The notes under the pieces are model-generated. The model worked only from the letters and a program-made list of their open reading frames with translations, searched no databases and had not been told where the DNA came from. Both the position numbers and the translations under genes were made by a program. Source: an uncultured Candidatus Saccharibacteria bacterium (GTDB taxonomy: Bacteria > Patescibacteriota > Minisyncoccia > Phycocordibacterales > CAYGLL01). Taken from it: a stretch of DNA of 64,000 bases. Positions 47,942 through 64,000 of this stretch are shown here, in pieces. The stretch lies in the NCBI GenBank assembly GCA_964350935.1, contig CAYGLL010000004.1, positions 9,267 through 73,266 on the forward strand, given 5' to 3'. Each line of letters opens with the position of its first letter. Positions within the stretch are counted from its first letter, which is position 1.

Positions 47942-48076
47942 GTGTTTGCCTTTGGTTGAGGTTGACCGCTAGTATCTGCAAGTATTATTACATATATTAA
48001 TCAATATGTCAAATACTACGCAACCTAAAAAAGCCTTTATTTAAGGCTCTAAATTTAAGCTAAAATTCAATAACTC

Positions 48077-48358: not shown

Positions 48359-48420
48359 AAAAACTAAAGTTGCCAAGTGGGACGTTATGGATTCAGGAGT
48401 TAAATAGATTGTTGCACCCG

Positions 48421-49047: not shown

Positions 49048-49126
49048 AGATAGTACTATTGTATCAATTTACACAAAACTCGTCCTTAAGCACGACTATC
49101 GGTTTAATTGATTCGGGATAATTCAT

Positions 49127-49567: not shown

Positions 49568-49568
49568 A

Positions 49569-49844: not shown

Positions 49845-49888
49845 TTTTACAGGTTAACACAGGTTAACCTGTAATTCAATCTGTGGAT

Positions 49889-50224: not shown

Positions 50225-50240
50225 GCTAAATATAAATTAC

Positions 50241-51023: not shown

Positions 51024-51058
51024 GCTATTTACATTCAGCTTGGGGTTTCATGAGTAAA

Positions 51059-51943
51059 TTATATCAATTCAGTTGTTTCCGATCTATTTACTAGATACAC
51101 GCTTATTAAAACCAGTGCCCCTCCGATGAGTTCTCGAAGCAGTGGGGCTTCTTTAAAAAGAAAAACGGAATACAAAAGCGCGAATATTGTTTCCAGTGTA
51201 AGGATGTTTGCAGCCACAATTACTTTCAATCTCTGAAATCCATAATTGGTAAGGAAAAGATTGGCGACGTTAAAAATAGCTCCTGCAAAGAGCGCGAGCA
51301 ATATAAAAGGTGTAAATTGATCGAGCGTAGGGGTTGGTTCGCCTAGAACAAGCGAAGTGATAAAAAGGAAAATTGCTCCCGCAAAAAACATAAAGGTAGT
51401 ACTTTCTTTGTTGTTGAGGTAGTCACTGTGCCATTTACGTGCAATGTAACTAAAATCAAAGGCAAGCATTGAAAGTAGCGCCATAACTTCGCCGTACCCA
51501 ATCTTGAAAGTTGAAAAATTAACGAGAGAAATAAGGAGTACACCGACAAAACCAATACAGACATACAATACGGTCTTGGTTTTAAGTCGTTCCCCCAAAA
51601 GAAAATATCCCATGATAGGAAGTAGTGGCAATGCCGCGATGAACGATGCATTTCCGTACTTCGTGTTGAGTAGGGCCTCGGTAAACAAGGTAACTCCAAG
51701 GTAAAGTGTAATTGACCGAAATATCAAAACCCCAAGATCGTTTTTAGAAAGATTTTTATATTTACTCCAACTAATGTCTCTAGAGAAAACAACGCAGGCA
51801 AGAAGAAAAGCTAAACCAATTCTCAAATACGTCTGTTCAAATAGTTCGAAGCTTGTCGCAAGATACCTCGCAAAGATTCCCATTGTTGCGAAGACAAAGG
51901 CAAGTACTACTAGTGCGACTACCCCTTTTTTATTTTCAGACAT
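51059..51943 (-). CDS. EamA-family (DMT superfamily) transporter
   Basis: 10 predicted TM helices in two 5-TM repeats. Confidence 0.65.
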   Translation of the reverse strand: MSENKKGVVALVVLAFVFATMGIFARYLATSFELFEQTYLRIGLAFLLACVVFSRDISWSKYKNLSKNDLGVLIFRSITLYLGVTLFTEALLNTKYGNASFIAALPLLPIMGYFLLGERLKTKTVLYVCIGFVGVLLISLVNFSTFKIGYGEVMALLSMLAFDFSYIARKWHSDYLNNKESTTFMFFAGAIFLFITSLVLGEPTPTLDQFTPFILLALFAGAIFNVANLFLTNYGFQRLKVIVAANILTLETIFALLYSVFLFKEAPLLRELIGGALVLISVYLVNRSETTELI

Positions 51944-51945
51944 AA

Positions 51946-52281
51946 TTAGAAAATTGAATTTCCTAGCGGGACTTCGGTTTGTGGGGTGAGATAGATGGTT
52001 TCGTCTTTGTCGTTTTGGACGCCGAGAATAAGGACCTCGGACTTTTCCGGGCCCATTTGCTTGGTGCCAAGGTTAATGACACAAATGATCTGCTTTCCAA
52101 TGAGGTCTTCCTTTGCATAGTTTCGATACGCACCACAGGATACTTTTGTCCCGATCTCAGGGCCAAGATCAACGGTAATGCGATATGTTGGCTTTTTGGT
52201 CGCCGCATCCTCGACATTCACGATCTTCCCTACCCGAATATCGAGTGCGTCAAAGTTTTTAAATTCAGCAAGAGGTTTCAT
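51946..52281 (-). CDS. csaA: tRNA-binding protein (CsaA/Trbp111-like), copy 2
   Basis: roughly 90% aa identity to copy 1 (49889..50224); nucleotide identity roughly 85%. Confidence 0.7.
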   Translation of the reverse strand: MKPLAEFKNFDALDIRVGKIVNVEDAATKKPTYRITVDLGPEIGTKVSCGAYRNYAKEDLIGKQIICVINLGTKQMGPEKSEVLILGVQNDKDETIYLTPQTEVPLGNSIF

Positions 52282-52811
52282 TTATACTTATCTGGAATTT
52301 TAGCTTTTAAATATGGGGAGTAATATCGGCCATACTTCTGAAATATATCTGGTCGCTGCCAATCGCTTGGTGTAATGAGTTCTCGGCAAGCTCGTGATTT
52401 GCAATTGCATTTGAACGGATCGAAACATGTTTGACTAAATGCGTAATCCCAAGCAATTTCAACGTCAGGTTCTATATCTTCTATAGCAATGATTGTTATT
52501 GTGTCCCGGAATCCGGCGTTTGGATCGCACGCATGATTTATGGTTGCGGTGAGTTCAAGATCTTCTGGCGTTGGTGCCATTAAAAAATTTTCATCAATGT
52601 CGAGTGGTATATTGTCAACAACATAATCCATAAGTTTGTTGTATTTTTCAATGTCTGATTTCGGTACGACAACTCCACCGGTGACTCGAAGTATTTCCCC
52701 TTTTGAAATAAATTCCCTTGCAAAAAGACCCCTAGCACAAATACGAGATTTACGAACCTCAGTCTTAGGATTAAGCCATCTATGCTGCCAAATTTTGTGA
52801 AAATCCTCCAT
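52278..52811 (-). CDS. SET-domain protein (putative lysine methyltransferase) with post-SET Cys cluster
   Basis: ARGLFAREFISKGEIL (N-SET GxG region), INHACDPN (NHSCxPN signature), ..IEPDVEIAWDY (ELxxDY-like), post-SET CNCKSRAC. Confidence 0.7.
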   Translation of the reverse strand: MEDFHKIWQHRWLNPKTEVRKSRICARGLFAREFISKGEILRVTGGVVVPKSDIEKYNKLMDYVVDNIPLDIDENFLMAPTPEDLELTATINHACDPNAGFRDTITIIAIEDIEPDVEIAWDYAFSQTCFDPFKCNCKSRACRELITPSDWQRPDIFQKYGRYYSPYLKAKIPDKYK

Positions 52812-52812
52812 A

Positions 52813-53751
52813 TTAGTTCACCTTATATTCGTCTTTTCCTGTTTTGAGCAGATTGATGAGGGATTTAGTCGCGGCGTCGCTCGTGGTTTTGAGTTCGTTA
52901 AAAGTATTGAACGCGGTTGAGGTGTTCGAACAGTACCAGGTGCTTATCGGCAATTCTTTGGAGCTTGGGTCCGTGAGCGGATGATCCGACGCGGCACGTA
53001 GTCGGCCGCTTTTGAGTTCCTTAAGAAGCGCGTTCTCATCAGTAATAACGGCATTCACAAAAGTAACGAGAAGCGAGCCGTCTTTCATAAGAGCGAACTC
53101 TTTCGCGCCCAAAAGATTATCCGGAGCGTCCTTAGAAACGCAGAGGTATACGATATCGCTCTCTTTAAGCAGGTTTTCGAGTGTGGCATACGAAATGCCA
53201 AGTTCTTTTTCACGCTCCTCGTGTCGGTGTCGGCTGTAATACTGAATTTTTCCGGGGCGGAATGGCTGAAGCATTTTCGTGATTTGGCTACCAATCCTAC
53301 CCAGTCCGATTATGCCGATGTTTTGTCCCTCGATTCCTTTGGTCGTGAAGAATTTCTTTGTTCCGCTAGGGCCAAGATCGAACAGGTTTCTTTGCATGGC
53401 AAGCGTTGCAGCAAGAGCCCACTCCGATACGGCAAAGGTCGGTGCGTCGGGTGTGTTCGCGATGGCAATCCCCTTTTTGGTGACATACTCCCAATTCAAA
53501 ATATATTCTTTGTACCCAATGCCCGTAAAGACCATTGCTTTGAGCGCATCCGCCGCGTCGACAATCTTATTCGTGGTTTTCTCGATCCCACCGATGATAT
53601 AGCCGACTTTGCCTTTTATCGCTTCGATAAGCTGGTCCTCCGATGCCGTAGGTGTGTCGAGCCGTTCTATCTCGTAGCCAGCGTCCGTAAGCATCTTTTC
53701 ATGCTCTTTGAATATAAACAGCGAGTCCGTGATTAGAATTTTAGGTTTCAT
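52813..53751 (-). CDS. D-isomer-specific 2-hydroxyacid dehydrogenase family protein
   Basis: NAD-binding GIIGLGRIG Rossmann motif; two-domain length; catalytic region partially divergent. Confidence 0.65.
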   Translation of the reverse strand: MKPKILITDSLFIFKEHEKMLTDAGYEIERLDTPTASEDQLIEAIKGKVGYIIGGIEKTTNKIVDAADALKAMVFTGIGYKEYILNWEYVTKKGIAIANTPDAPTFAVSEWALAATLAMQRNLFDLGPSGTKKFFTTKGIEGQNIGIIGLGRIGSQITKMLQPFRPGKIQYYSRHRHEEREKELGISYATLENLLKESDIVYLCVSKDAPDNLLGAKEFALMKDGSLLVTFVNAVITDENALLKELKSGRLRAASDHPLTDPSSKELPISTWYCSNTSTAFNTFNELKTTSDAATKSLINLLKTGKDEYKVN

Positions 53752-53917
53752 TTGAAAACGGAGTTATTTCTCCACATTTGAGATTGTAACAGCGGATTAC
53801 TGTTTCAGCAGGAAGTGCTGTATATTTACCACGCGAATTTGTATCGCCGATCTTTACTTCCGCAGTAGTCTCTATTAAGGCATTATCACTTTTACATTTC
53901 GGACAAGTTGCTTTCAT
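53741..53917 (-). CDS. zinc-ribbon mini-protein (58 aa), translationally coupled to dehydrogenase gene
   Basis: hand translation MKATCPKCKSDN...IRCYNLKCGEITPFSNET with CPKC...C..LKC pairs; stop overlaps the downstream ATG; below the ORF-track length cutoff. Confidence 0.4.
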   Translation of the reverse strand: MKATCPKCKSDNALIETTAEVKIGDTNSRGKYTALPAETVIRCYNLKCGEITPFSNET

Positions 53918-53921
53918 ATTA

Positions 53922-54275
53922 TTATTTACATTGAATAAATTGTAGGATAAATGTCAGGGCCGAGATAATGATGGCAACCACAGAAAGCCAAAAAGCATTT
54001 TTTGAGTTCTGTCGCGCCTCCTTCAATTCATCGTAGTCTGTTACTTTTGAGACCAGGTCAAGTGGTGGAATCCATGAGCCGCCCCTTCCAGTTCGAGAGT
54101 AATTTCGTCCGGCTGGCGCTTGAAGCTCTTCCTCGATAAATTGGTTGAAATGACCCTCACTAATCGTGTAATTATTTTTTAGATAATTTTTCAGTTCTTC
54201 AAATTGAAATCCCTTTTCAGAGTTATCGACACAATAACGAGCTGCAGCAATTTGCCAAGGTTCTTTTTTTGACAT
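53922..54275 (-). CDS. hypothetical protein with C-terminal TM anchor
   Basis: ORF; no family recognised. Confidence 0.35.
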   Translation of the reverse strand: MSKKEPWQIAAARYCVDNSEKGFQFEELKNYLKNNYTISEGHFNQFIEEELQAPAGRNYSRTGRGGSWIPPLDLVSKVTDYDELKEARQNSKNAFWLSVVAIIISALTFILQFIQCK

Positions 54276-54283
54276 CGAATTAA

Positions 54284-54808
54284 CTACTTTATCTTCTTCT
54301 CAAGTAAAAAGTCTAAGTGTCTTTGCAATTTCAGGTACCAAAGAATAAAACCAGTGACTGACAAAAACAGGCCCGCAATAGACATCATCTCATAAAGTTT
54401 TATTTGCCCCTTTGCCCGATTGAGTATATCAATGAAGTAATCGTGAGAAATTTTTTCTGAGTCGATTTCCCTCGCCAACCCAGAAAGACGGTCTGTTTCA
54501 GACGAGATGAGTTCAAACTGGTTCGCAAGTAATTCTTCAAATTTATACAAGTCTAACTCGCTATTGTTTTTATAGGCGTCAATTTTAAGTTGAGAGATCT
54601 TAATCATAGCTTCTGCCTGAGCACTTTTTATTTCAGAAGCAGCCATGCTTCTCGCAAGTTGCACGTGAGCAGTTTCTACTTCAAAATGCTTGGTGAGGAT
54701 TTTGTCCAGAAGTATTTGGGGAAGAACAACAGATAGGGTGATTAAGAACAGTCCAGTTATGGCAATAAACTTATATAAATTATCAGTAGGAATTTTCAGC
54801 GCATCCAT
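54284..54808 (-). CDS. hypothetical two-TM membrane protein with coiled coil
   Basis: ORF; TM helices near N and C termini. Confidence 0.35.
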   Translation of the reverse strand: MDALKIPTDNLYKFIAITGLFLITLSVVLPQILLDKILTKHFEVETAHVQLARSMAASEIKSAQAEAMIKISQLKIDAYKNNSELDLYKFEELLANQFELISSETDRLSGLAREIDSEKISHDYFIDILNRAKGQIKLYEMMSIAGLFLSVTGFILWYLKLQRHLDFLLEKKIK

Positions 54809-54820
54809 AATAGGCTCTGA

Positions 54821-55810
54821 CTAATACAACTTCGTGCCGAGGCGGGCGTGGACAAGGGTCATTTTCTTTTCGGCGATAGCGCGGGCTTTTTCGCCGCCAG
54901 CTTTGAGGACATCGAGAACCGCGGCGCGGTTGTGCTCGAGTTCACTGCGGCGGTTACGAAGTGGAGTTACGAATTTAATGAGATCGGCGATAAGAGCCTC
55001 TTTGAGGTCTTTGTACTTTCCTCGTTTGTTGACATAGAGTTTCTCAAGTTCAGCTTCGGGACGGAACAGTTTGTGTATCTCGTAGACGTTGGTCGGTGTG
55101 TCTCCAGATGAGTCGGTAACGATCGACATGACGAGTTTCTTTATCTCCTCGTCGGTCGCAAACAGTGGGATTGTATTTTTGTAGCTCTTGGACATCTTCT
55201 GGCCATCAATTCCCGGAACAGTCGCAACATCGGCGAAGATCATCGGCGCGGGCAGGCGGAATGTCTCACCAAAAATACGATTGAATTTTTCGGCCGTGTC
55301 GCGAGCAATCTCAATATGTTGTTTTTGATCTTGCCCCACCGGCACGACATCGGCGTCATACAGCAAAATATCCGCCGCCATGAGCATTGGGTAGTTGAAC
55401 GTGCCCACCGAAAGCTCTTTGTTCTTGGCTTCGGCGTCTTTGAAGGCGTGGGCGCGCATGAGGTATGGCATGGTCGTGATGCAGTCGAATATCCATGCAA
55501 GTTCGGCATGTGAGGCGATGTCGGATTGTTTGAAAATAGTGACCTTGTTCGGGTCGAGGCCGATAGCGAGGTAATCGAGAGCAACGCCCATGATCATCTC
55601 ACTCATCTCCTCTTTGTTCTGGACGCTCGTGAGGGCGTGGAGGTCGGCAATAAATATGTAGCAATCATACTTCTCTTGAAGTTCAACAAACTGCCTCATC
55701 GCGCCGAAATAATTGCCAATATGAGGCCTACCCGTGGGTTTGATCCCCGAGAGCATAGTCTTCTTAGACTCTGATTCCGATTTTATTGATTTGTCCGTTT
55801 TTGACGGCAT
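54821..55810 (-). CDS. trpS: tryptophanyl-tRNA synthetase
   Basis: HIGNY (HIGH) and KMSKS motifs; start placed at MPSKTDKS (55810) because the longer ORF would run through the upstream terminator hairpin; MLSGIKPTG at 55756 is an alternative start. Confidence 0.85.
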   Translation of the reverse strand: MPSKTDKSIKSESESKKTMLSGIKPTGRPHIGNYFGAMRQFVELQEKYDCYIFIADLHALTSVQNKEEMSEMIMGVALDYLAIGLDPNKVTIFKQSDIASHAELAWIFDCITTMPYLMRAHAFKDAEAKNKELSVGTFNYPMLMAADILLYDADVVPVGQDQKQHIEIARDTAEKFNRIFGETFRLPAPMIFADVATVPGIDGQKMSKSYKNTIPLFATDEEIKKLVMSIVTDSSGDTPTNVYEIHKLFRPEAELEKLYVNKRGKYKDLKEALIADLIKFVTPLRNRRSELEHNRAAVLDVLKAGGEKARAIAEKKMTLVHARLGTKLY

Positions 55811-55845
55811 GGCGAAATCGTAGCACAAAAGTGGCTTAGGATAAA
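55677..55845 (-). repeat. direct-repeat copy A: native trpS promoter region and first roughly 45 codons
   Basis: roughly 80-85% identical to 61630..61795 (for example ttgccaatatgagg..cccgtgggtttga..agcatagtcttcttagac..gatttgtccgtttttgacggcatg). Confidence 0.6.
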
Positions 55846-55851
55846 GATTTA

Positions 55852-55885
55852 AAAACACCCCTCGCATGTGCGAGGGGTGTTGTAG
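55852..55885 (-). terminator. Rho-independent terminator after C39-domain gene, immediately upstream of trpS
   Basis: acacccctcgca-tgtg-cgaggggtgt hairpin followed on minus strand by T-run. Confidence 0.6.
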
Positions 55886-55893
55886 TGAAGCAA

Positions 55894-57453
55894 TTACTTT
55901 TTCAGAAACCCTTTCGCTTCCCGCTCAAATTGCGGCAGCGATTTGAGTAGATTGGTGCGAGCGGACTGATTTTTTCGGATAGCGAGAAGCCACGATCCAA
56001 TCGGAGTGGAAGAGAATCTCCTCATCTGTCCAGATGACCAGTTTTCCTGCTTTCTTGAAAGCGGATCACACACCACGAAACCGTGCTGATTGTAACCTGA
56101 AACCACAACCGCATGAAGCATACCGCACATGCCGGCAAGAATGACTAGGTAGTCATCGTTCAAAAGTGAAGTAATGAGTTCGGGTGTAATCGGCACACCA
56201 TTTCTCACAACGGCACATGGACCACAATTATCAATGAAGCCTTGATACTCTGCCATGAGTGCCGAAAATGTTTCAGGATCAAGATAAGCGTTGCCATTTT
56301 GGAACATGCCGCTTTCGGAATGAATCAGTTGAGTTTCAAGTCCGTGGCAGTCAGCATACTTCTGTAATCCGGAGAAATGCGTTCCGGGTATGAGTTTTGC
56401 CGCACTTGCCTCGTAAATGGCATGTTCTGTTTTTACTGAAAGTTCCGTCAGTTCCAAGTGGTGGAGAATCATAGTGAGGCTCGCCGCACCACAGGTGTAT
56501 GGAGTTGACTGTCGGAATGGAGTTACATTTTTGACCATAAGTTCCTTTCTATAAACGTGAAGTTTTTCTAATCCTTCGGCCACCTGATTATCGTCAAGAG
56601 CGTAGATCGCTCCTGTGTTCAGAATAATCTTCGTGTCGTTAAGTAGGGTCAGAACAGCCCGTCTCAGGACATACCCTGAAATCCCTACCAATGTAGTAAG
56701 CATGGAGTACTCGTCGGTATTGTCATAGGTAATTGTCCTGGCAAGGGCTGAGACGTACGGGCGTTCCATCGCAAAGTAAAAGTGCTCGACACGTTTCGCG
56801 ACGCTCCCCCGTGTCTTACTGATTCGCTCTCGGATAACCTTGGGCGAACTATTTCTGAAGGCACTCAAATTTGCAAGTCGTCCTTCAAAAATGAGTTTGT
56901 CACCCGCATGGTATTTCTGCAGAAGGTCCTCAGTTTTTTTGCGTTTGCGCCCAGCAAGAAACAGTTCCAGGTGATCGGCCATGTAGGTCGCCCAAAAAGA
57001 AGGAGTTGGTGGCGTCAGAAGAAGTGTTGCCTCTGCGTCACTCAACATCATTTTTTGTTGCAGCCAGCTGGTCCAATACTCGATGTGCTTTTTGATCGCG
57101 GCTGTGGGAATAAGTGTCGCCTGGTCGATTAAGGATGCGACAGCATACATTTTGCCAAGTTCCACGACGCGCTCCTCGGTTAGATCAAATACGGTGCGGG
57201 GCAGAAGATCATTCAGCGCAGGTTCAAGGAGTTCTTCAAAGAAAACATTGTGCCAGTTCCACCGGTTGACGAGTTCTTCATAAAATGTCACCGGATCTTT
57301 GCGGGCCTGTTCTTCAACTAAGTTCCGAAGTAAGGGGTTTGATTGTGCAAAGTAGCGATTCGCGCCCAACAGTTCTTTGGTCAGAATCTCATCGATACTG
57401 CCCTTCCAACCATCAGGAATAAGTACGGATTTACGGTTTTTGGGTGTATTCAT
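55894..57453 (-). CDS. protein with C-terminal C39-like papain-fold cysteine peptidase domain and uncharacterised N-terminal domain
   Basis: C-terminal Q..TCGAASLTMIL (Gln oxyanion/Cys), H (LHAVVVSG) and D (VVCDP) spacing typical of C39 double-glycine leader peptidases; N-terminal 300 aa unassigned. Confidence 0.55.
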   Translation of the reverse strand: MNTPKNRKSVLIPDGWKGSIDEILTKELLGANRYFAQSNPLLRNLVEEQARKDPVTFYEELVNRWNWHNVFFEELLEPALNDLLPRTVFDLTEERVVELGKMYAVASLIDQATLIPTAAIKKHIEYWTSWLQQKMMLSDAEATLLLTPPTPSFWATYMADHLELFLAGRKRKKTEDLLQKYHAGDKLIFEGRLANLSAFRNSSPKVIRERISKTRGSVAKRVEHFYFAMERPYVSALARTITYDNTDEYSMLTTLVGISGYVLRRAVLTLLNDTKIILNTGAIYALDDNQVAEGLEKLHVYRKELMVKNVTPFRQSTPYTCGAASLTMILHHLELTELSVKTEHAIYEASAAKLIPGTHFSGLQKYADCHGLETQLIHSESGMFQNGNAYLDPETFSALMAEYQGFIDNCGPCAVVRNGVPITPELITSLLNDDYLVILAGMCGMLHAVVVSGYNQHGFVVCDPLSRKQENWSSGQMRRFSSTPIGSWLLAIRKNQSARTNLLKSLPQFEREAKGFLKK

Positions 57454-57498
57454 GTTGTAAAGACCTTTTAAATGAGACTACTCCACGCCATCATTAAG

Positions 57499-58167
57499 TC
57501 AATGCTTTTTGAGAAACGCGATAGTTTTTTCAAGTAGTTCATCTTCGTCTTTTTCTCCCATGAGGGAATGGGATGAATTATTAAGAGTGTACATAGTTGC
57601 ATTAGACAGGATTTCAGCCAGACTCATTGAATTTTGAAGCGGAACAACGGTGTCCTTGCTGCCGTGCAGAATGCAAATGGGAATGCGCAACGAAGTAGCC
57701 CACGTCCGGTTAATTTCTATATCAAGCACATTGCGAACATTTTTAAGCTCAACCGAGCTCAGTTTACTTACGGTTTCCTCGCCGGAGGTTACTCCAATCG
57801 CCGGAGCCCAGAGTGTTAAAGCGCGTATCAGTGGGTTACGGTATGAAATTAAAAGTGTCGCTCCAAAACTTTTTCCAATAGCAGTAAATTGCTTGAACCC
57901 TTGTTGAGAAAAATAATTGAGAATAGCGTCAAGCTCTTGATGATAATAGTTGATAGTTGAGCGCTCTAGTTCGGACTGATTCTGCCACATGTCTACTCGA
58001 GCAAGCGGCATTCCCTCACGGGTAAAATAAGATTCTAGCCGGGCATATTTGTCTGTAGTGGCCACGCCGCTGATTCCTGCTATAAAAAGCACTAAGTTTT
58101 TTGCTTGATCAGTCTTTATGTCGTTTAGGGCAACAAGACTATTACTTATTTTGATTATATTTTGCAT
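57499..58167 (-). CDS. alpha/beta-fold hydrolase
   Basis: GKSFG nucleophile elbow (GxSxG), ...HGSKD... His region. Confidence 0.55.
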   Translation of the reverse strand: MQNIIKISNSLVALNDIKTDQAKNLVLFIAGISGVATTDKYARLESYFTREGMPLARVDMWQNQSELERSTINYYHQELDAILNYFSQQGFKQFTAIGKSFGATLLISYRNPLIRALTLWAPAIGVTSGEETVSKLSSVELKNVRNVLDIEINRTWATSLRIPICILHGSKDTVVPLQNSMSLAEILSNATMYTLNNSSHSLMGEKDEDELLEKTIAFLKKH

Positions 58168-58171
58168 ATCT

Positions 58172-59422
58172 TTATGGAAAAGGATGAGGAAGTTTTTGAG
58201 ACCTAGGCTTAATTCCTCTTCGAAGCGCCTGCCCCAGCTTTGGTAGTATGTGCGATTTATTTAAATCAATCATTCGAGGTATGACAACACGAGCAATTGT
58301 GAACCCGCTGTCCTTAAGGTCTGTCGAAGTTATGTCTTTATAATAGACCTCAAATTTTTTTTCCGAAAGTTTATTAAAAAGCGAACGTTGAGACAAAGTG
58401 GTTGCTTTATAAGGAATTTTTTTTACAATCTTAGTCCGTAAAAGATCGAAATTTTCACCCTGATAAAAAAGAAAGTGCTCAAACAGCGCGGTAATATCTT
58501 TCGGCCTATCCTTCCTGTATTCTAACAAATCCATTGAATAGAAATAGGTAAAGAGGGCCTCTATAAGAGCCTTTTCAACTGCTCGGTTTGAATCAAGATG
58601 CGAACACGAACCTATTCCAAAATGGTAGCCCTTCTTTCTACTTTTTGTCCATACGTATGCGCCGAAAGTTGGAACAGATACTGCCGCAGGAAGTATGAAT
58701 AGTTCGAGATTATAGTATTTTTGTATTTTTTTAATGAATTTTTTAAGTTTGAGGGGGAGTGTCTCAGTATCCACACTATCAAGTTCGGTATCTGAATAGT
58801 GCCGCATCATTTGTGCATCACGCTCGATTATTTCTAACGTTCCACCGAGAATTGAGTCAGCCAGTTTTTTTCCAGCCGCGATCCCCGTTGAAGTTGTTTC
58901 TGCTATTTTTTCAAGGTGAAATGGCAAGTAGACAAGTGCCGCCGGCCAGTACAGTTCTTTTTTTCTCTGCGCAGACTTTATTTTTACCCAGTGAATTAGA
59001 TCTGTTGTGGCATTTTTAAAATGAACAGGAGTTGTTGTGGGTCCGTATATATTCAAATCAATTTTTGAAGGCGCACAAGATGAGTCAAGATCTTTATGTT
59101 TTGACAAAAGAAGTTCTGGGCGAGAATAGAAAGACATCGCGTATCGTTCAAGTGATTCTCCAATGCATGCGAATAGTGCTGATTTTTTATTGGACGCAAC
59201 ACCTAACCCGCCCGAAGAAAGTTCCTCGGTTTGATTACTGTTAAGTACGGTTATTTTTGCTGTTAGTGATTGAAAAGAGTTTAGGCCGAATCGGCTAAGC
59301 ATGTCTCGTTCCAGGATTGCGTTTATGTGTCCGGTAAACTTGCTGATCAAGGGTTCAAGCTGTTTTCGCTCTCTCTTTGTCAGAAACCTCAATTTTTTTG
59401 TTGAAGTGTGAATATTATTCAT
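58172..59422 (-). CDS. YcaO-domain protein
   Basis: ALFACIGESLERY and GTLEIIERDA ATP/Mg-binding signatures of YcaO cyclodehydratase-type domain; ATG at 59422 (MNNIH) gives ATGAATAA start/stop coupling with the upstream ORF. Confidence 0.65.
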   Translation of the reverse strand: MNNIHTSTKKLRFLTKRERKQLEPLISKFTGHINAILERDMLSRFGLNSFQSLTAKITVLNSNQTEELSSGGLGVASNKKSALFACIGESLERYAMSFYSRPELLLSKHKDLDSSCAPSKIDLNIYGPTTTPVHFKNATTDLIHWVKIKSAQRKKELYWPAALVYLPFHLEKIAETTSTGIAAGKKLADSILGGTLEIIERDAQMMRHYSDTELDSVDTETLPLKLKKFIKKIQKYYNLELFILPAAVSVPTFGAYVWTKSRKKGYHFGIGSCSHLDSNRAVEKALIEALFTYFYSMDLLEYRKDRPKDITALFEHFLFYQGENFDLLRTKIVKKIPYKATTLSQRSLFNKLSEKKFEVYYKDITSTDLKDSGFTIARVVIPRMIDLNKSHILPKLGQALRRGIKPRSQKLPHPFP

Positions 59423-59834
59423 ACACCGGTAGTGGGCGTATCGTGTGCAGTTTGATGAGTTTTCCGGTATTTCCAAGTTCGAGCATGTACCTTTTTCCAA
59501 AGACTTGGACAAATTTTTTCCTGAGAATTTTTTGAAGTACCTGTGACCTGTTCGGATTTATGAGTTTTATTTTTTTTGAGTCAATAAACGAAGATGAAGA
59601 AATGCGTTTAAGGATAAGTTCAAAATCTGCTAAATTTTTAAGCGTTGGCCCAACTAAGTAAGAATGCGAAAAACGTGCAATAAAGATCGCCGGGACCGTT
59701 TCAGCTCCAGCATCCTTACCCCTTTTTCCTAGCCGGACTTGTTCTTTTGCCATTTTTCTTAACACAACATCACCATTGTGTGGTGATGTTGTGTTCTGCT
59801 TAGGCGGTGCAGAGGAGGTCAAACTTTTTAGCAA
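59415..59834 (-). CDS. hypothetical basic protein, translationally coupled to ycaO-like gene
   Basis: ORF (TTG at 59834; first ATG about 59753); no family recognised; stop overlaps the YcaO start. Confidence 0.35.
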   Translation of the reverse strand: MLKSLTSSAPPKQNTTSPHNGDVVLRKMAKEQVRLGKRGKDAGAETVPAIFIARFSHSYLVGPTLKNLADFELILKRISSSSFIDSKKIKLINPNRSQVLQKILRKKFVQVFGKRYMLELGNTGKLIKLHTIRPLPVYE

Positions 59835-60018
59835 ATTTTTTCATTGTGTATTTGCTTAGTCCGATTGATAATAAAGTTCGAAGCTAAGTATAAGTGTATC
59901 ACTGTTGAAATATGTTGCAAGTTAATAACAACATGAATTGATTATCAATATTTAAGTTATGTATGGCGGTGTGTTTCAGAATTAAGGTTAAAGCCTAGTG
60001 TACTCATTTCAGTTCTGT

Positions 60019-60552
60019 TTATCGGAAAAAAAATTTACTAATTAACTTCGGCAGATCCCCTTTTGCCCTATCACCTCCTTTTATCTTTTCCAAAAGTTCA
60101 CTGGGCAAAAGCCAGAAAAATTCAATAAAATCTCTTGTGTTGTAGCGCGGATCAGCATTCAAAGAAATCTCGTACACGTTCATAAAAGCAGACACACCGT
60201 GCTCGTGCGGTGTTAAGTGACCGAGCAATTTCCACGTTGTAGTTTCAGTGTCTACGTTTAGTTCTTCTGCCGTCTCGCGTTTAAATGCCTGGTCGTATGT
60301 TTCCCCGCTTTCTACGTGTCCACCCATACTCATATCAAGGCAGAGCGGAAATATTCGTTTGTCTACCGATCTGCGCGGAATCCACATTTTTCCTTCAGAG
60401 TTTACGACAAATGCGTTTACTACTCGGAAATTTGAAAGACCTTCGGCGTAAATTTCTTTTCGAGATTTTTTGCCAATCACCTTGTCATTTCGGTCCACAA
60501 GGTCGAGATATTCTTCTTGCACAGGTTGAATCTTGTTAGTTTCAGGTACCAT
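60019..60552 (-). CDS. Nudix hydrolase
   Basis: Nudix box GGHVESGETYDQAFKRETAEELNV (Gx5Ex7REuxEExGu). Confidence 0.75.
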   Translation of the reverse strand: MVPETNKIQPVQEEYLDLVDRNDKVIGKKSRKEIYAEGLSNFRVVNAFVVNSEGKMWIPRRSVDKRIFPLCLDMSMGGHVESGETYDQAFKRETAEELNVDTETTTWKLLGHLTPHEHGVSAFMNVYEISLNADPRYNTRDFIEFFWLLPSELLEKIKGGDRAKGDLPKLISKFFFR

Positions 60553-60692
60553 ATCTGAAATAATATCAAAAATCGGCCTTAAAATAAGGCTAATCCCTAT
60601 TACGTATACTTGACTTTATTTATTATTTATGTTAGGCTATTTTTTAGCAATTTTCAGTCCTTTAACATCAACCACAACCGCAGAAATCCTCT

Positions 60693-61037
60693 ATGAAAAC
60701 ACTCGAAATTAACGGAGAACTCTGGTTCTACCTCGGCGAGCCTTTTGCCGTACGGTGCGATGATCAATGTGGCCTGACCGCTGTCGGAAACATCAGGCGG
60801 GCCAAAGAAGGTAAGCCTCGCAAAGTTTGGATCCACAGTCTCGCGGATGCCTTTGCTTGCGCTGAAGAGTGGGCCGCTAATAACGACCACCTTTCGGGGT
60901 ATGTTTTGGACTTCGCCAATCGCACTGTTTACTACGACAACGATCGGGCACTCCGACAGTTGAAGAGGAAGATCTTCCCTCAACGTAACCTCGTCGGCTA
61001 CTTCACAACCTTTACCCAAAGGTCGTTCAAGAAGTAA
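60693..61037 (+). CDS. hypothetical protein (higher-GC segment)
   Basis: ORF; plus strand preferred because of strong downstream plus-strand terminator; no family recognised. Confidence 0.3.
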   Translation: MKTLEINGELWFYLGEPFAVRCDDQCGLTAVGNIRRAKEGKPRKVWIHSLADAFACAEEWAANNDHLSGYVLDFANRTVYYDNDRALRQLKRKIFPQRNLVGYFTTFTQRSFKK

Positions 61038-61070
61038 CCGAACAAAACACAGCCAACAGAAAGGTAATGG

Positions 61071-61490
61071 ATGAAAACAATTATGAAAGTCCCGCATCCT
61101 GCGGGCATCGCGATTAATAATCGCCCTCTCCTCGACGCCTTCATCGAGCTCTGTCTCAGGATCGATAACATGGGAACCCTCCGGGACGAGTTCAAAGGAA
61201 TCGATCAGATCGAAATCACCGGCGAGGAATCACAAAATTCCGAACCGGAGTGGGGTCAGGCGTTAGGCATCAGGTGCCATTTGAAGATCCCTGGGGTTGA
61301 ACCAGCGATTGGAAACGCGTTCCTCTCTGTCGGCACCTTCCTCTTTGTCACGAAGGGCCGAGCGCGTGCTTCTCATGCATGTGGGCCCACCATCGAAGGG
61401 CAAATCAAGGATGTTCTTGATCCCTTAGCCGCAAGCCTCGCCATGAGCTGTCTCGAGTTGGCTCAAAGGTTTGCACCCACAGCCACGTAG
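61071..61490 (+). CDS. hypothetical protein (higher-GC segment)
   Basis: ORF followed by strong terminator; no family recognised. Confidence 0.3.
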   Translation: MKTIMKVPHPAGIAINNRPLLDAFIELCLRIDNMGTLRDEFKGIDQIEITGEESQNSEPEWGQALGIRCHLKIPGVEPAIGNAFLSVGTFLFVTKGRARASHACGPTIEGQIKDVLDPLAASLAMSCLELAQRFAPTAT

Positions 61491-61504
61491 CGCACAACAG
61501 TCTC

Positions 61505-61537
61505 ACGAGACCCGATCAACCGATCGGGTCTCTTTTT
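61505..61537 (+). terminator. Rho-independent terminator
   Basis: gagacccgatc-aacc-gatcgggtctc perfect 11-bp hairpin followed by ttttttat. Confidence 0.75.
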
Positions 61538-61629
61538 TATGGGACATAGAGTGAAATAAACCCACTCGTCCATATCTCCGCAGCAAGCTGACGAGGTATA
61601 TCTAGAATTAATCTCCGCGAGGCTCAACC

Positions 61630-61795
61630 TCGCGGAGACATAAGCCTCATTGCTCCAAAATAGTTGCCAATATGAGGGCGGCCCGTGGGTTTGACCCCAC
61701 TAAGCATAGTCTTCTTAGACCATTCTATATGATTTGTCCGTTTTTGACGGCATGCGGGAATAGTAGCAAAAAAAGCCTAATTTGAAGTTCGGTGG
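61630..61795 (-). pseudogene. direct-repeat copy B: degraded duplicate of the trpS 5' end (MPSKTDKS... then frameshift/stop)
   Basis: encodes MPSKTDKSYRMV* and, out of frame, LSGVKPTGRPHIGNYFGAMR; lies immediately downstream of the tRNA-Trp terminator. Confidence 0.6.
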
Positions 61796-61796
61796 A

Positions 61797-61830
61797 TTTA
61801 AAAAAAGAAAACTCCCAGGTGGGAGTTTTA
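61797..61830 (-). terminator. Rho-independent terminator downstream of tRNA-Trp
   Basis: aaaactcccacctgggagtttt hairpin followed on minus strand by ctttttttt. Confidence 0.7.
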
Positions 61831-61834
61831 GGGT

Positions 61835-61908
61835 TGGCAGGCACGGAAGGAATCGAACCCTCGGTAAGGATTTTGGAGATCCCTGGTTTACCACTAACCG
61901 ACGTGCCC
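61835..61908 (-). tRNA. tRNA-Trp (anticodon CCA)
   Basis: hand fold of GGGCACGTCGGTTAGTGGTAAACCAGGGATCTCCAAAATCCTTACCGAGGGTTCGATTCCTTCCGTGCCTGCCA: 7-bp acceptor stem (G1-U72 wobble), D-arm GGTT/AACC, anticodon loop CTCCAAA (U33, C34C35A36, A37), T-arm GAGGG-TTCGATT-CCTTC, discriminator G73, encoded CCA. Confidence 0.8.
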
Positions 61909-61945: not shown

Positions 61946-62731
61946 TTACTTCTTCGAGTCAAGTCCACCAGGCATTTTTCGTGCGGCAAAGCCGAAGATA
62001 GATTCGTAGTTTGTACTACCAAAGATTACGGGATAAAAGTCATACACTGCCCTGATTTCTATTTTGTCTGAGGTGCGGGCGAAAATCTCCCCAGTTTTGA
62101 TCTGCTTAAAATTTTGGACATGCGGTTCAAGATGAGCTCCCGCCGGTTTAGCGACACTTTCAAAAACTTCATAGTATTCTGTTTGAAACCCAAAAGGCTT
62201 CACCGGCGAGATTAAACCGTAGTATGAAAAAATAAACTCAACCCCCTCAGTTGTTTTAATCACTGTTTTGCTATGAGTGTCTTTTCCCATTTCAAAAGCA
62301 ATGCCGATGCGGGCGCATGAAATAAGCGCCCTGTCTGGTTTCATGTTCATAAAAAGTACATTGCGCGGGGAAAGTTTTTGAAGTAGCTCTTTCGTAGCCG
62401 GATCTAGTTTGGTAACAATAACAGTATCTTCGAGCCCGCTTTTGGTTGAGTGAATATCGATAACGACATCATAGGCTGAAACAACTCGCACGAGTTCGAA
62501 AGCGCGTTTCTCCTCATATGTTCCGTCCGCTTTTCCCGGAAAAACCCGATTTAAGTCCTGATCAATATAGCGCTTTCCCTCTTGGTAGGCGCGTTCATTG
62601 GCGATCTGTACATCTACAGAGTCCCCGATAAGTTTTGGGTATTTTTTTAAAATTTCATCCTTAACCCTAACACCCACAAGCTCATCACCATGAGTCAGGA
62701 TATTGAGAAGTATTTTGAGCGCCATTTTCAC
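61946..62731 (-). CDS. succinylglutamate desuccinylase/aspartoacylase (AstE/AspA) family zinc hydrolase
   Basis: hallmark motifs LTHGDELVG (HG.E) and DLNRVFPG near N-terminus; 261 aa. Confidence 0.6.
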   Translation of the reverse strand: MKMALKILLNILTHGDELVGVRVKDEILKKYPKLIGDSVDVQIANERAYQEGKRYIDQDLNRVFPGKADGTYEEKRAFELVRVVSAYDVVIDIHSTKSGLEDTVIVTKLDPATKELLQKLSPRNVLFMNMKPDRALISCARIGIAFEMGKDTHSKTVIKTTEGVEFIFSYYGLISPVKPFGFQTEYYEVFESVAKPAGAHLEPHVQNFKQIKTGEIFARTSDKIEIRAVYDFYPVIFGSTNYESIFGFAARKMPGGLDSKK

Positions 62732-62779: not shown

Positions 62780-63562
62780 CTATGCGCAAAGATCACGGCA
62801 CAGCGTCGCCCATTCAACGATTTGATCAAGCGAATCCGTAGCTCCAAACATCCGAAACTCGATTGTCCCGTGGACTGAGATGCGAATAAGTGTCCAGCAT
62901 CGGCGCGGGTCATCCGAAAAAGAATGCACCACTGATCGATCATAGAACTGGCTGAGGTCCTCGATTTTGTTCGGCATGTACTGTGTTGCCATAACCCGGT
63001 AGAGAGCCATCCGTTGCCCAGATGAATTGTCTCCGAGTGCGATCAGGCGCTCCGTGTGCTTGATAGCACAGTTGTAAGCGTTAATCGCCGCCGACAAGTT
63101 GGACATACCAACGTGAATGTGCGTTGCTGCCACACGACAGGCTGCCGAAAGAACTTCGTGCGGCATGTTTTTGGTAATCACTTGGTATCGTCCCGTTGGG
63201 TCAGGATAGATATCAAGGGGCATCGACTCGGAGGCTATTTCCAGGTTTACACGTCGTGCACCGACAACATGGTCGGCCCAATCGAGGGTTCTTTCGCTGT
63301 CAGAAAGTTTCGCATGTAGCTCGCCTATTTGGCATGGACCGATTTTTGACTCTAGCTGACATGCTGAGAGCTCGTACCCGAAATTCGAGTAATCCTGCGC
63401 AAGTCTCCCGCTTTCACGAAGACAATCAAGATATTTTTCTGCAAGCGGAGCAACCGCACCCGTTTTCGGGTCAATCGTAAACTGTTCCCGCTCAACACCA
63501 ACGCATCCGATTTTTTCCTGATCGAATTTGAATCGTTCAAAGAACTTTTCTTTTTCTGTCAT
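62780..63562 (-). CDS. GCS2-family carboxylate-amine ligase (YbdK/glutamate-cysteine ligase family 2-like), short form
   Basis: GVEREQF, GYELSACQLE, THIHVG and IEFRMFGATD align with GCS2 conserved blocks; 260 aa is shorter than typical YbdK. Confidence 0.5.
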   Translation of the reverse strand: MTEKEKFFERFKFDQEKIGCVGVEREQFTIDPKTGAVAPLAEKYLDCLRESGRLAQDYSNFGYELSACQLESKIGPCQIGELHAKLSDSERTLDWADHVVGARRVNLEIASESMPLDIYPDPTGRYQVITKNMPHEVLSAACRVAATHIHVGMSNLSAAINAYNCAIKHTERLIALGDNSSGQRMALYRVMATQYMPNKIEDLSQFYDRSVVHSFSDDPRRCWTLIRISVHGTIEFRMFGATDSLDQIVEWATLCRDLCA

Positions 63563-63862
63563 AGTTCGCCTTTCAGAGTTCGAGTCCTCTTCTCATAAGA
63601 AAACCCGTCCACAGCGCGCGTAACTTTTGTTACCTACGCTAAGGACGGATTTACCGTGGTGCCACCTTGTTTCGAGGGAGTATTCACCCTTCGCACTTTG
63701 CTATCTTTATGTCCATTAAGGACCAACAATAGCTTTCCTGATAACGGAGGAATCCGGATTTCCACTCATGCAGAAACCCTCTTGTCGTCGGCCTGTAGGA
63801 CAGACGACTACCATGACCCAGCCCCTTGTCCCTTAAGACAAAGGATCACGATATAGAGCTTC
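63563..63862 (-). promoter_or_regulatory. candidate T-box riboswitch leader (Trp-specific?) with promoter and intrinsic terminator upstream of GCS2-like gene
   Basis: minus strand: TTGACA-17-TATGCT promoter (plus coordinates 63867-63895); T-box-like core AAGGUGGCACCACGG (plus 63654-63668) against consensus AGGGUGGNACCGCGG; UGGC bulge complementary to GCCA of adjacent tRNA-Trp; terminator CCGUCC...GGACGG then GUUUUCUU just before the ATG; possible specifier UGG-A about plus 63762. Confidence 0.4.
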
Positions 63863-64000
63863 CAAAAGCATAGTACTGATGTAAAAATGTGTCAACTTGA
63901 TATTGCATCTTTGCGTGGTAGTTTGAAAACTGAAAGAGTTCGTTGTAATTATGATAACAAACAAATCCGTACCGATAACTGACCCGGCAGTAATAGCTAG

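Follow-up and report, generated by a model that had tools for sequence, protein, structure and literature searches.

We analysed a window of 64,000 nucleotides of DNA from a Paceibacteria (CPR) genome. Read along the minus strand, the locus consists of tRNA-Trp, a terminator, a truncated copy of the trpS 5' end (copy B), a 5.8-kb stretch with other genes and a further copy of that 5' end (copy A) that opens trpS itself. The tRNA-Trp gene (CCA; 61908-61835, minus strand) was called by ARAGORN and scored 56.4 bits with the Rfam tRNA model; its discriminator is G73 and the CCA is encoded. An intrinsic terminator with a 9-bp stem and CTTTTTTT follows (61808-61829, minus strand; -11.9 kcal/mol, z -3.7). 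The trpS gene (55810-54821, minus strand) encodes 329 amino acids (PF00579, E 4e-64; TIGR00233, 291.7 bits), and the protein is 93% identical to P0048. Directly upstream of its promoter, 3' of a gene for a 519-aa protein, lies a terminator hairpin with a 12-bp stem and UUUUU (55850-55880, minus strand; -23.6 kcal/mol, z -6.9). The B junction was present in independent contigs from four samples, which differed by a single SNP, and the A junction in two of them. Because both junctions recur across independent assemblies, an assembly artefact was ruled out. The arrangement is fixed in the sampled population, and no presence/absence polymorphism of the block was seen across the samples examined.

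Upstream of tRNA-Trp, an AstE/aspartoacylase-family protein of 259 aa is encoded at 61946-62725 on the minus strand (PF24827, 5e-19; NF002601 aspartoacylase, 1e-20, under the cut-off); its exact sequence was found on four further contigs. It is preceded by a YbdK/GCS2-like carboxylate-amine ligase of 260 aa (62780-63562, minus strand) with scores under the cut-offs for both NF010043 (1.9e-14) and TIGR02050 (2.7e-10). A T-box-like leader with a terminator (63638-63797, minus strand; RF00230, 41.9 bits against a gathering score of 93, E 1e-6) lies upstream of the transcription unit of ligase, AstE-like protein and tRNA-Trp. It has the motif AAGGUGGCACCACGG, a terminator CCGTCC...GGACGGGTTTTCTT and a fold z-score of -5.45, and is a candidate in which Stem I and the specifier were not resolved. 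Finally, a second gene for tryptophanyl-tRNA synthetase, trpS2, runs off the window, which includes its 5' end (63951-64000, plus strand; mapped from L163). The complete gene at L163:2639-4003 encodes 454 aa, exceeds the TIGR00233 cut-off of 176.75 with 262.6 bits, and its product is 38% identical to TrpS(A).

Copy A (55830-55693, minus strand) comprises the working trpS promoter and codons 1-39. The promoter, TGTGCTACGAT, is located about 9 nt upstream of the ATG, and the homology of the L175 and L081 orthologues likewise begins at 55830. Copy B (61773-61644, minus strand) comprises an extended -10 promoter, TGCTACTAT, an ATG at 61755 and codons 1-39, reads MPSKTDKSYRMV up to a stop codon and is cut off after ...GAMR; it is the same in the four samples except for one SNP at 61698. 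Alignment of 55693-55830 with 61644-61773 gave 80.4% identity over 138 columns with 3 gap openings (E 7e-28), including ungapped blocks of 77 nt at 84% and 44 nt at 89%. The pair is one of just two repeats in the 64-kb window. The clearly alignable part of about 130-138 bp extends from -20 of the ATG to codon 39. Weaker similarity may reach about 186 bp across the upstream terminator hairpins, with a common TTTTTAAATC tail and a stem core in which the changes are compensatory. Compared with the 45-nt N-terminal extension that the two closest orthologues, L175 and L081, share, copy A has 9 extra bases and stays in frame, while the frameshift of copy B stems from one extra base within codons 1-39. 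A perfect 11-bp hairpin, unique in the window (one match, 0 expected), abuts the inner end of copy B (61612-61638, minus strand; -25.5 kcal/mol, z -4.9). Past the B junction the sequence resembled no trpS 3' end and no region downstream of a trpS. Thus the accessory block between target-derived direct repeats described in an earlier note is present, with copy B as a dead fragment behind the tRNA-Trp terminator and copy A as the working trpS start. The earlier figures of 170 bp for the repeat and about 45 codons for copy B have to be shortened as given above, and the frameshift reported there is narrowed to a single base.

The differences between the copies bear on the age of the truncation. 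At 12 of 99 aligned coding bases A and B differ; 11 of these differences are synonymous, among them TCG>AGT for Ser and AGG>CGC for Arg, and the remaining one exchanges I and V. In simulations of neutral random substitution at most one amino-acid change occurred in 0 of 200,000 runs (P below 5e-6). All B-specific changes in codons 19-39 (8/8) are synonymous. This pattern, together with the one disabling base, indicates that copy B diverged inside a once-functional trpS, at a time when both copies belonged to working genes, and was truncated only recently relative to that divergence, few neutral changes having accumulated since. Consequently, a divergence of 15-20% does not imply the old event that had been deduced from it. 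The differences are unevenly distributed, with 0/36 in codons 1-8 and the 12 nt before M19 and 12/63 in codons 19-39. Compared with two outgroups, A has 9 and B 4 unique states in the upstream part, and A has 3 and B 8 in codons 19-39, a reciprocal mosaic that falls short of statistical significance (Fisher p = 0.10). A crossover with a central heteroduplex would predict such a mosaic. In addition, 8 sites are in a derived state common to A and B when L175 and L081 serve as reference (a sister grouping by 8 sites to 1), which requires a conversion tract or close kinship of both parental alleles.

The block carries the genes that the first reading had listed and, in addition, a 14-codon ORF and a gene for a 112-aa protein that it had missed. 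Five of the genes and ORFs, with a hairpin, make up a module that is conserved in Paceibacteria. The 14-codon ORF MKKFAKKFDLLCTA, closed by a stop codon (59800-59844, minus strand), is a candidate precursor peptide of the YcaO module. An ORF ending in ...DL[LA][CS][TS][AV] occupies the same position in 5/5 module loci with upstream DNA (the window, L173, L167, L169 with two copies, and L171); codon changes between loci are synonymous, and there was no match elsewhere in the related loci searched. Directly 3' of it lies a 15-bp perfect hairpin (59761-59795, minus strand; -22.9 kcal/mol, z -7.7), which has an equivalent in each locus. The 112-aa protein (59415-59753, minus strand) is unclassified and is always encoded directly upstream of the YcaO gene; it was also called in L163. 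Six aligned orthologues showed 22-27% identity with LIGP and KRxxSSSF motifs, and distant members have four Cys. The YcaO protein (58172-59422, minus strand; 416 aa from the ATG at 59422; PF02624, 3.7e-38) scored 165.9 bits with the SagD-type model TIGR03604, under the cut-off of 219. The module further comprises an alpha/beta hydrolase of 222 aa (57499-58167, minus strand; PF12146, 1.7e-9), kept in L173, L174 and L167, and the 519-aa protein (55894-57453, minus strand), in which an all-helical N-terminal domain (1-304) precedes a C-terminal C39 bacteriocin-leader-peptidase fold. The block also contains a Nudix hydrolase gene (60019-60552, minus strand; 177 aa; PF00293, 2.7e-12) with 67% nucleotide identity to Nudix genes of Nostoc/Trichormus plasmids, and two higher-GC ORFs with a terminator (60693-61532, plus strand). 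These ORFs of 114 aa (60693-61037) and 139 aa (61071-61490), followed by the terminator at 61507-61532, had no match in Pfam, PHROG or NCBIfam, and the 139-aa ORF is without homologue among 5.8 billion proteins.

As the first reading had stated, there is no integrase. Profile searches of all block ORFs (Pfam, PHROG, NCBIfam) detected no integrase, transposase or phage family, and no excisionase or other mobility gene exists within the 5.8 kb. Collections of phages, plasmids and viral contigs yielded no related sequence. In composition, for which the note had proposed a comparison with the rest of the contig, the block proved native, ranking 31st of 59 in tetranucleotide distance with a GC content of 43.6% versus 45.1% for the window, as would be expected of DNA from a close relative. 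No tRNA sequence lies within the repeats, and a search of the 64-kb window gave no further tRNA-Trp 3' fragment; the tRNA gene thus does not qualify as the recombination target. These results do not support a classical tRNA-targeting, integrase-driven island. With tRNA-associated islands of the tyrosine-recombinase type the locus shares the position of the block directly downstream of a tRNA gene and the direct repeats derived from the site, and in L169 the YcaO cargo sits beside tRNA-Asn. Yet the repeats here are 130-190 bp of a protein-gene promoter and 5' end at 80%, whereas those of the islands are near-identical 15-60-bp segments of the tRNA 3' end; integrase, excisionase, compositional signature and presence/absence polymorphism in samples are all lacking. 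Of the genomic island proposed earlier, the accessory block and the target-derived repeats stand, the tRNA target and the old age do not, and the block is not foreign in composition. Since its outer copy is what is left of a formerly working trpS, we read the structure as a recombination scar and not as a classical integrase-driven island.

An empty site with tRNA-Trp directly followed by trpS, the synteny that the earlier note had suggested looking for, was not found: tRNA-Trp was upstream in 0 of about 120 related trpS loci. Only copy B thus suggests that the two genes were once adjacent. In each of the three closest relatives, L175 (93% TrpS), L176 (88%) and L081 (76%), the genes next to trpS on its upstream side are different ones, and the DNA is unrelated from about 20 nt before the ATG. 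Across about 175 related loci there was neither an empty site nor a donor allele that matches codons 19-39 of B, and at the nucleotide level B was matched best at about 84% over about 52 nt. L161 equals the window through the block and the first 120 or so trpS codons and then switches allele, with 48 differences in 190 nt, mostly at third positions; the switch could be an assembly chimera. In L169 a tRNA-Asn gene immediately precedes the YcaO module, which is flanked by 43-nt direct repeats starting at the last base of the tRNA. This is a parallel case, with repeats that are unrelated to those of the window in sequence and length. Repeats that vary in this way fit insertion based on homology rather than on a core site. 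In five other contexts the module occurs with varying gene order and without a trpS fragment, so it is not a dedicated trpS-targeting cassette.

We favor the view, with a probability of about 0.5, that the block is an accessory-gene insertion made by homology-driven recombination at the trpS 5' end and not by a tRNA-targeting integrase. One parental arrangement would have been tRNA-Trp, terminator, promoter and trpS. The incoming DNA, from a related Paceibacteria lineage, would have brought about 5.6 kb of accessory genes with its own terminator, promoter and about 39 trpS codons. As a circular piece it may have undergone a Campbell-type single crossover with the resident trpS inside the homology of about 130-190 bp, giving two direct repeats. 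The outer one, B, would then retain the resident upstream flank, ending where the incoming homology ends as a promoter-bearing, truncated and frameshifted relic; the inner one, A, would be continuous with the rest of trpS as the working gene start. Campbell-type crossover and homology-facilitated illegitimate recombination leave direct repeats as long as the shared homology, one copy truncated and one complete; they need no dedicated recombinase, tolerate diverged partners and leave mosaic repeats. Most of what is known of both comes from laboratory constructs and from model bacteria with natural transformation, whereas here the bacterium is an uncultivated member of the CPR and sequence is our only basis for inferring the circular intermediate, the crossover and the identity of the resident flank. 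A single crossover of a circle and a linear replacement with one illegitimate end are indistinguishable at this locus.

A degenerate or trans-mobilised site-specific integrative element targeting the trpS 5' end, with the repeats as attL and attR, appears unlikely. Such an element would carry a replacement promoter and 5' coding segment, like SXT/R391 at prfC, and its crossover core would lie at the inner homology end (ATGAGGC), where a 7-nt identical stretch closes the homology. It would explain the displaced native 5' fragment at one junction and the working hybrid gene at the other and, with its own gene mimic, would also predict synonymous divergence. Furthermore, a 19-nt duplicate of the tRNA 3' end at the L169 tRNA-Asn site shows integrase-type activity there, and an integrase may act in trans from outside the 64-kb window. 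On the other hand, the 5.8 kb without recombinase, excisionase or mobility gene, the native composition, the empty viral, phage and plasmid searches, the module contexts without trpS fragment and the unrelated L169 repeats argue against it. SXT supplies a new 5' end to its target gene, and in both cases the insertion is into the 5' end of a translation gene that is essential and keeps its function. Yet SXT spans about 100 kb with Int, Xis, conjugation genes and nearly identical attP/attB, none of which were found here. Somewhat less probable still is xenologous replacement, in which a long linear fragment from a relative, comprising the block, an entire trpS(A) and DNA downstream of it, took the place of most of the resident trpS(B), by homology further downstream at one end and by homology-facilitated illegitimate recombination at codon 39 at the other, leaving the repeats as remnant and replacement. 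The abrupt change from B to unrelated DNA and the synonymous substitutions would be accounted for with no integrase necessary; the 14 kb downstream of trpS likewise lack synteny with L081 and L175, and no part of the window other than 47-55 kb is a compositional outlier. However, no second boundary was found, and codons 19-39 of A and the remainder of trpS are as similar to the closest relative, L175, as neighbouring genes are (85.5% nt, 93% aa). The ancestral-looking promoter and foreign-looking codons 19-39 of B are better explained by a crossover than by a simple remnant.

Two complete trpS genes of the same type, one after tRNA-Trp and one after the YcaO module, might also have arisen by duplication or acquisition and long remained functional until trpS(B) was deleted from codon 40 on, with no insertion between the repeats. 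We consider this quite improbable. It accounts for purifying selection on B and for the sister grouping of A and B, and the second, distant TrpRS shows that such redundancy is tolerated. But trpS similarity is missing past the B junction, long retention of two trpS genes of near-identical function is unlikely in a reduced CPR genome, and simple paralogue divergence would not be expected to give the 0/36 versus 12/63 mosaic. Hardly credible is an in-situ duplication of the trpS 5' region with neutral decay of B, the model implicit in the first reading, or an artefact. A frameshifted and truncated B would suit either, but neutral decay predicts mostly non-synonymous changes instead of the 11 synonymous to 1 conservative observed, and the two junctions were seen repeatedly, in independent assemblies of four samples.

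Homology-driven recombination at the trpS 5' end remains our preferred reading, and trpS is a recombination boundary in this clade, as the unrelated upstream DNA of L175, L176 and L081 and the allele switch of L161 indicate. The closest known system to the cargo are YcaO-dependent RiPP clusters (TOMM type: SagBCD, McbBCD; C39 peptidases PCAT, LahT, ComA). In contrast to these, the precursor candidate has just 14 aa and lacks a double-glycine site, the peptidase has no fused ABC transporter and bears a 300-aa helical domain without match, the partner is an unclassified 112-aa protein, and YcaO scores under the TOMM family cut-off. From family membership and gene context, a small modified peptide is the most likely product of the module, and the cargo appears to be a set of peptide-modification genes that has not been described before.

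The two copies of the trpS start described in the earlier note do align significantly. Self-comparison of the window paired the 5' end of the working gene (copy A, 55830..55693, minus strand) with a diverged counterpart (copy B, 61773..61644, minus strand) at 80.4% identity over 138 columns with an E-value of 7e-28, including ungapped blocks of 77 nt at 84% and 44 nt at 89% identity. A repeat-bounded block of genes between tRNA-Trp and trpS was confirmed as an observation. Because the terminators 5' of A and B have the tail TTTTTAAATC in common and also a stem core, CTCNCA..TGNGAG, in which the differences are compensatory, the duplicated unit may start right behind the tRNA and total about 186 bp, the extra part being very short. 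The only other repeat found by this comparison is an unrelated 336-bp duplication (49889-50224 and 51946-52281, minus strand, 80.7% identity) coding for two 111-aa paralogues, whose orthologue in L176, a contig with a closely related trpS, has a tRNA_bind domain.

On the minus strand an AstE/aspartoacylase-like gene (62725..61946) is followed by tRNA-Trp(CCA) at 61908..61835, its terminator at 61829..61808 and copy B. The latter retains an extended -10 promoter-like element, TGCTACTAT, the ATG at 61755 and trpS codons 1-39; its translation reads MPSKTDKSYRMV up to a stop codon, with homology to trpS ending after ...GAMR. A perfect 11-bp hairpin (61638..61612, minus strand) without a second occurrence in the window abuts copy B. 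Beyond it lie two ORFs without relatives together with their terminator (60693-61532, plus strand); a 139-aa ORF beside the B junction had zero homologues in the protein search. The remainder of the block is on the minus strand again, with a Nudix gene (60552..60019), a five-part YcaO module (59844..55894) and a terminator (55880..55850) 5' of copy A, which is continuous with the complete trpS (55810..54821).

The B side was present with one SNP in the contigs L163-L166, the A side in L161 and L162. Since both junctions recur in independent contigs from four samples, the two-copy arrangement is no assembly artefact. The block was present in all four population samples.

We compared A and B over 99 alignable coding bases, leaving out the variable-length N-terminal linker. 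Twelve bases differed; 11 of the differences were synonymous, with TCG>AGT (Ser) and AGG>CGC (Arg) among them as changes of several steps, and the twelfth exchanged Ile and Val. When 12 substitutions were placed at random in 200,000 simulations, whether or not a transition bias was applied, not one run produced at most one amino-acid change. The differences of copy B therefore arose inside a translated, selected trpS and not in a decaying fragment. Purifying selection on both repeat copies is what is expected of a Campbell-type insertion between alleles. All 8 B-specific changes in codons 19-39 were synonymous as well, so that there has been very little neutral change since the truncation. Measured against a 45-nt extension common to the related loci L175 and L081, one extra base breaks the frame of B, and A carries 9 additional in-frame bases. 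The 15-20% divergence, which the earlier note took as a sign of an old event, is contradicted in that role by the 11 synonymous differences out of 12; judged by these substitutions, it represents the distance between two alleles and not the age of the event.

The differences are unevenly distributed. Codons 1-8 and the 12 nt ahead of Met19 show no difference between A and B (0 of 36 positions), and codons 19-39 differ at 12 of 63. Outgroup comparison with L175 and L081 joined A with B at 8 sites, and 1 site contradicted this. In the promoter region A had 9 unique states vs 4 in B, while in codons 19-39 B had 8 vs 3 in A. Such a reciprocal pattern with an identical centre is the expected trace if an incoming allele recombined with the resident one by a reciprocal crossover that had a heteroduplex tract, yet with few sites (Fisher p = 0.10) the mosaic is only suggestive. 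A further hint comes from a switch in L161 (ENA ERZ27247828 k141_1151342), which matches the window exactly from 58983 to 55452, i.e. in the block and the first ~120 trpS codons. Past 55452 (window 55265-55451) there were 48 mismatches in 190 nt, mostly in third positions, with 6 amino-acid changes. Either natural recombination with a break-point inside trpS or chimeric assembly would account for this contig.

The earlier note had seen in the locus the architecture of a genomic island, with a block inserted at a tRNA gene. Its observation stood, and so did the part of the interpretation that places an accessory block between repeats; the integrase-type island did not, as neither a recombinase nor tRNA-derived repeats nor a distinct composition was found. 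Scans of all block ORFs against Pfam, PHROGs and NCBIfam were negative for tyrosine and serine recombinases, in agreement with the absence of an integrase noted before, and for other mobility families. The repeat begins after the tRNA and contains no tRNA sequence; the 3' 16-23 nt of tRNA-Trp occurred once in the window even when 2-3 mismatches were allowed, i.e. there was no duplicated fragment. The composition of the block was ordinary and not foreign, with a tetranucleotide distance of 0.127 vs a window mean of 0.130 ± 0.018 (rank 31 of 59) and a GC content of 43.6% vs 45.1% for the window. Viral, phage and plasmid collections (three IMG/VR scans and BLAST) yielded nothing related except for a match of the Nudix gene. 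It has 67% nucleotide identity to Nudix counterparts carried by large plasmids of Nostoc and Trichormus, which is unusually high for a pair of CPR bacterium and cyanobacterium.

A displaced 5' fragment next to an intact gene is expected for an insertion like that of SXT into prfC and was seen here as well, B being truncated and frameshifted and A continuous. However, such an insertion should also come with a recombinase and nearly identical att cores, and neither was found; the identity of A and B at the inner end is limited to 7 nt and the repeats overall are 80% identical. A second repeat-bounded locus bears on this point. In L169 the same module lies directly downstream of tRNA-Asn between 43-nt direct repeats, which are 91% identical with one compensatory pair. 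The repeats begin at the last base of tRNA-Asn, and the second copy follows 6 kb on, past the YcaO module (regions L169:5953-6148 and 12011-12052). On inspection this repeat was a duplicated terminator starting at the tRNA end. An exact 19-nt duplicate of the 3' end of tRNA-Asn is located 100 nt after the tRNA. A GIY-YIG ORF and tRNA-Asn of L169 are moreover bracketed by an inverted repeat of 41 nt that is rich in GC (5646-5686 and 6283-6323). Two of the four long module loci, the window and L169, thus adjoin a tRNA and are repeat-bounded, a parallel that keeps an island-like reading in play.

Scans anchored on TrpS placed the window in Patescibacteria/Paceibacteria; from GTDB genomes and JGI metagenomes they yielded 160 loci, with more from look-ups of the two closest TrpS. 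The nearest proteins are P0048 at 93% identity (contig J055_10000164, L175), P0049 at 88% (L176) and that of L081 at 76%. The comparison of synteny suggested in the earlier note revealed no empty site among the TrpS-anchored loci (GTDB, JGI and the closest-TrpS look-ups), and none of ~120 related loci scanned had tRNA-Trp upstream of trpS. Block DNA and block proteins were absent from all related trpS loci scanned. Relatives at ≤93% TrpS identity are without the block and without tRNA-Trp 5' of trpS. The genes on the 5' side of trpS differ in every relative, and in each of them homology to the window at the nucleotide level begins ~20 nt before the ATG, which marks the 5' boundary of trpS as a recurrent break-point. 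On the 3' side of trpS, collinearity of the window with L081 and L175 sets in at ~40.6 kb, and the intervening 14 kb differs. The only tetranucleotide outlier of the window (47000-55000, distance 0.18-0.19 vs a mean of 0.13, GC ~41%) falls into these 14 kb, which are non-syntenic with L081 or L175. In ~13 more distant Paceibacteria tRNA-Tyr is located directly 5' of trpS in the same orientation (L037, L039, L044, L046, L048, L050, L054, L056, L057, L058, L064, L065 and L121).

We conclude that recombination left a scar here that bounds an accessory block; the kind of event is known and the example is new. At about even odds (roughly 0.5) we favor an insertion of the Campbell type, driven by homology at the 5' end of trpS, in which the incoming DNA would have come from a related lineage. 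A search for the donor allele of copy B found none, the best nucleotide matches being 80-85% over 50-76 nt, and in other genomes neither the surroundings of trpS nor those of the module contained trpS remnants. A site-specific element, degenerate or mobilised in trans, is unlikely. The displaced 5' fragment and the tRNA-adjacent repeats of L169 would suit it; the repeats of the window and of L169 are unlike in both sequence and length, a finding more in line with insertion by carried homology than with a fixed core site.

Replacement by a long linear fragment, of which one end would have been joined by homology and the other illegitimately, is quite improbable in our view. We give little credence to two long-lived full-length copies of trpS that later suffered a deletion. 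They would have kept B under selection, but the DNA after the B junction is unlike any trpS 3' end or downstream region, and an internal deletion as the origin of the B end was rejected for the same reason. In-situ duplication with neutral decay is effectively excluded by the synonymous pattern, as is an artefact by the recurrence in independent contigs.

The 5' end of a second TrpRS gene (63951-64000, plus strand; full gene in L163:2639-4003, minus strand) is located 2 kb upstream of tRNA-Trp, so that two TrpRS genes, a trpS relic and tRNA-Trp are united in one locus. The encoded protein of 454 aa has a ~120-aa N-terminal extension, is 38% identical to TrpS and scores above the cut-off of TIGR00233. 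Its gene diverges from an operon in which a T-box-like leader (63797..63638, minus strand) precedes a YbdK-like ligase gene (63562..62780, minus strand), the aspartoacylase-like gene and tRNA-Trp. The leader scored 41.9 bits with RF00230 (E 1e-6) vs a gathering threshold of 93; it contains a T-box sequence, Stem II/IIAB and a terminator, and 85 Stem I model positions were unmatched. Its UGGC bulge suits any G73 tRNA, e.g. the adjacent tRNA-Trp, and specifier candidates are UGG in a 3' bulge and GAC before a K-turn-like GAG. Specificity of the T-box for Trp, if true, would link trpS with the upstream operon. The Rfam scan detected no riboswitch or leader in the block or the trpS leader, and in L081 the region 5' of trpS was likewise without one. 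An extended -10-like motif, TGnTAnnAT, lies ~9 nt 5' of the trpS ATG and a Shine-Dalgarno sequence is absent; the motif is kept in orthologues and intact in copy B (window 55811-55830 and 61756-61773; L175:9976-10000; L081:9976-10000). From this arrangement the trpS mRNA may be leaderless.

The YcaO protein of the module matched PF02624 with 132 bits (cut-off 25.7) and the narrower TIGR03604 with 165.9, below its cut-off of 219. The 519-aa protein has 46 full-length homologues, and its gene was linked to YcaO and a small gene of ~112 codons in every locus recovered, often with the alpha/beta hydrolase. The module occurs in at least 6 Paceibacteria genomes with varying gene orders and genomic contexts; in L167 it sits between trpS and tyrS. 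YcaO-type genes are recurrent near trpS in this clade, and L175 has a different one (a nitroreductase-YcaO fusion of 741 aa, L175:5556-7781) 2.2 kb upstream of its trpS. Comparison of folds assigned a papain-like fold with a Gln/Cys/His/Asp active site of the C39 type to the 519-aa protein; the C39 domain was recognised solely in this way, as the family profile gave no match to PDB sequences. A TOMM-type cluster would be expected to have an E1-like or RRE partner and an FMN dehydrogenase. The 112-aa partner had no family in Pfam, PHROGs or NCBIfam, and a dehydrogenase gene was not found in the window; nitroreductase-like and ThiF-like genes were present in L171 only.

An ORF of 14-17 codons was found directly 5' of the ~112-aa gene in all five loci with upstream DNA (window 59800-59844, minus strand; L173:344-388; L167:11708-11761; L169:8052-8096 and 8262-8306; L171:11725-11769). 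It encodes MKKFAKKFDLLCTA in the window, MKKMNQKTDLLCTA and MKKFNQKTDLACSV in the two copies of L169, and MKKFSKKLDLLCTA, MKFIKKFDKKYDLLCTA and MKKFDRKTDLLSTA in the other module loci. The ending DLLCTA, with the variants DLACSV and DLLSTA, is conserved at the peptide level in the five loci and codon differences among them are synonymous. A hairpin of 13-17 bp follows within a few bases 3' of each ORF, and the peptide pattern had no matches elsewhere in the retrieved loci. An adjacent precursor with a Cys/Ser/Thr core is expected for a YcaO (TOMM-type) RiPP cluster, and the candidate ORF fits. The substrates of C39 bacteriocin peptidases have a double-glycine site, whereas GG, GA or GS occurred in none of the 6 candidate peptides. 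The ORF is possibly an ultra-short RiPP precursor, alternatively a regulatory leader peptide. Going by gene content, the module most likely serves to make a very small YcaO-modified peptide. For such a cluster it is unusual in the missing double-glycine site and in the 112-aa partner of no known family. In L171 a promoter-like segment of ~57 nt (TTGACC, 17 nt, TACATT, small hairpin) is duplicated at 9913-9969 and 13441-13497, one copy 5' of the C39-like gene and one 5' of the 240-aa, nitroreductase-like and ThiF-like genes. The 35-57-nt repeat of L171 thus resembles a duplicated promoter rather than an att site, and the duplication suggests co-regulation of two operons in an extended YcaO cluster.

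A broader scenario is doubtful at present. The module and its co-travelling neighbours would form an integrase-less mobile cassette of Paceibacteria, which would spread among related genomes as excised circles with a slice of donor flank and re-insert by homologous recombination beside tRNA genes, here splitting a tRNA-Trp/trpS unit. The very small YcaO-modified peptide for which it codes, with a precursor of 14 aa and DLLCTA at the C-terminus, would represent a new class, and the nearby second TrpRS might relate to peptide function or immunity.

Little is documented on gene flow and genome plasticity in CPR/Patescibacteria, since to our knowledge this lineage has no cultivated member and few known mobile elements. 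Recombination between diverged lineages has left a dated trace here within an essential gene, and the locus is notable for a clear allele-vs-decay signature, its CPR host and an apparently undescribed cargo module. Repeat divergence is useless as a clock where the copies stem from different alleles; the pattern of synonymous substitutions separates a recombination scar from an old decaying duplication. The cargo, a compact five-part YcaO module with a conserved 14-codon peptide gene, is likely the more valuable lead. Our literature search on YcaO in CPR/Patescibacteria found no account of the module. As far as we know, the host organisms are nearly devoid of secondary metabolism, and the module is a candidate for a new small modified peptide from such organisms.
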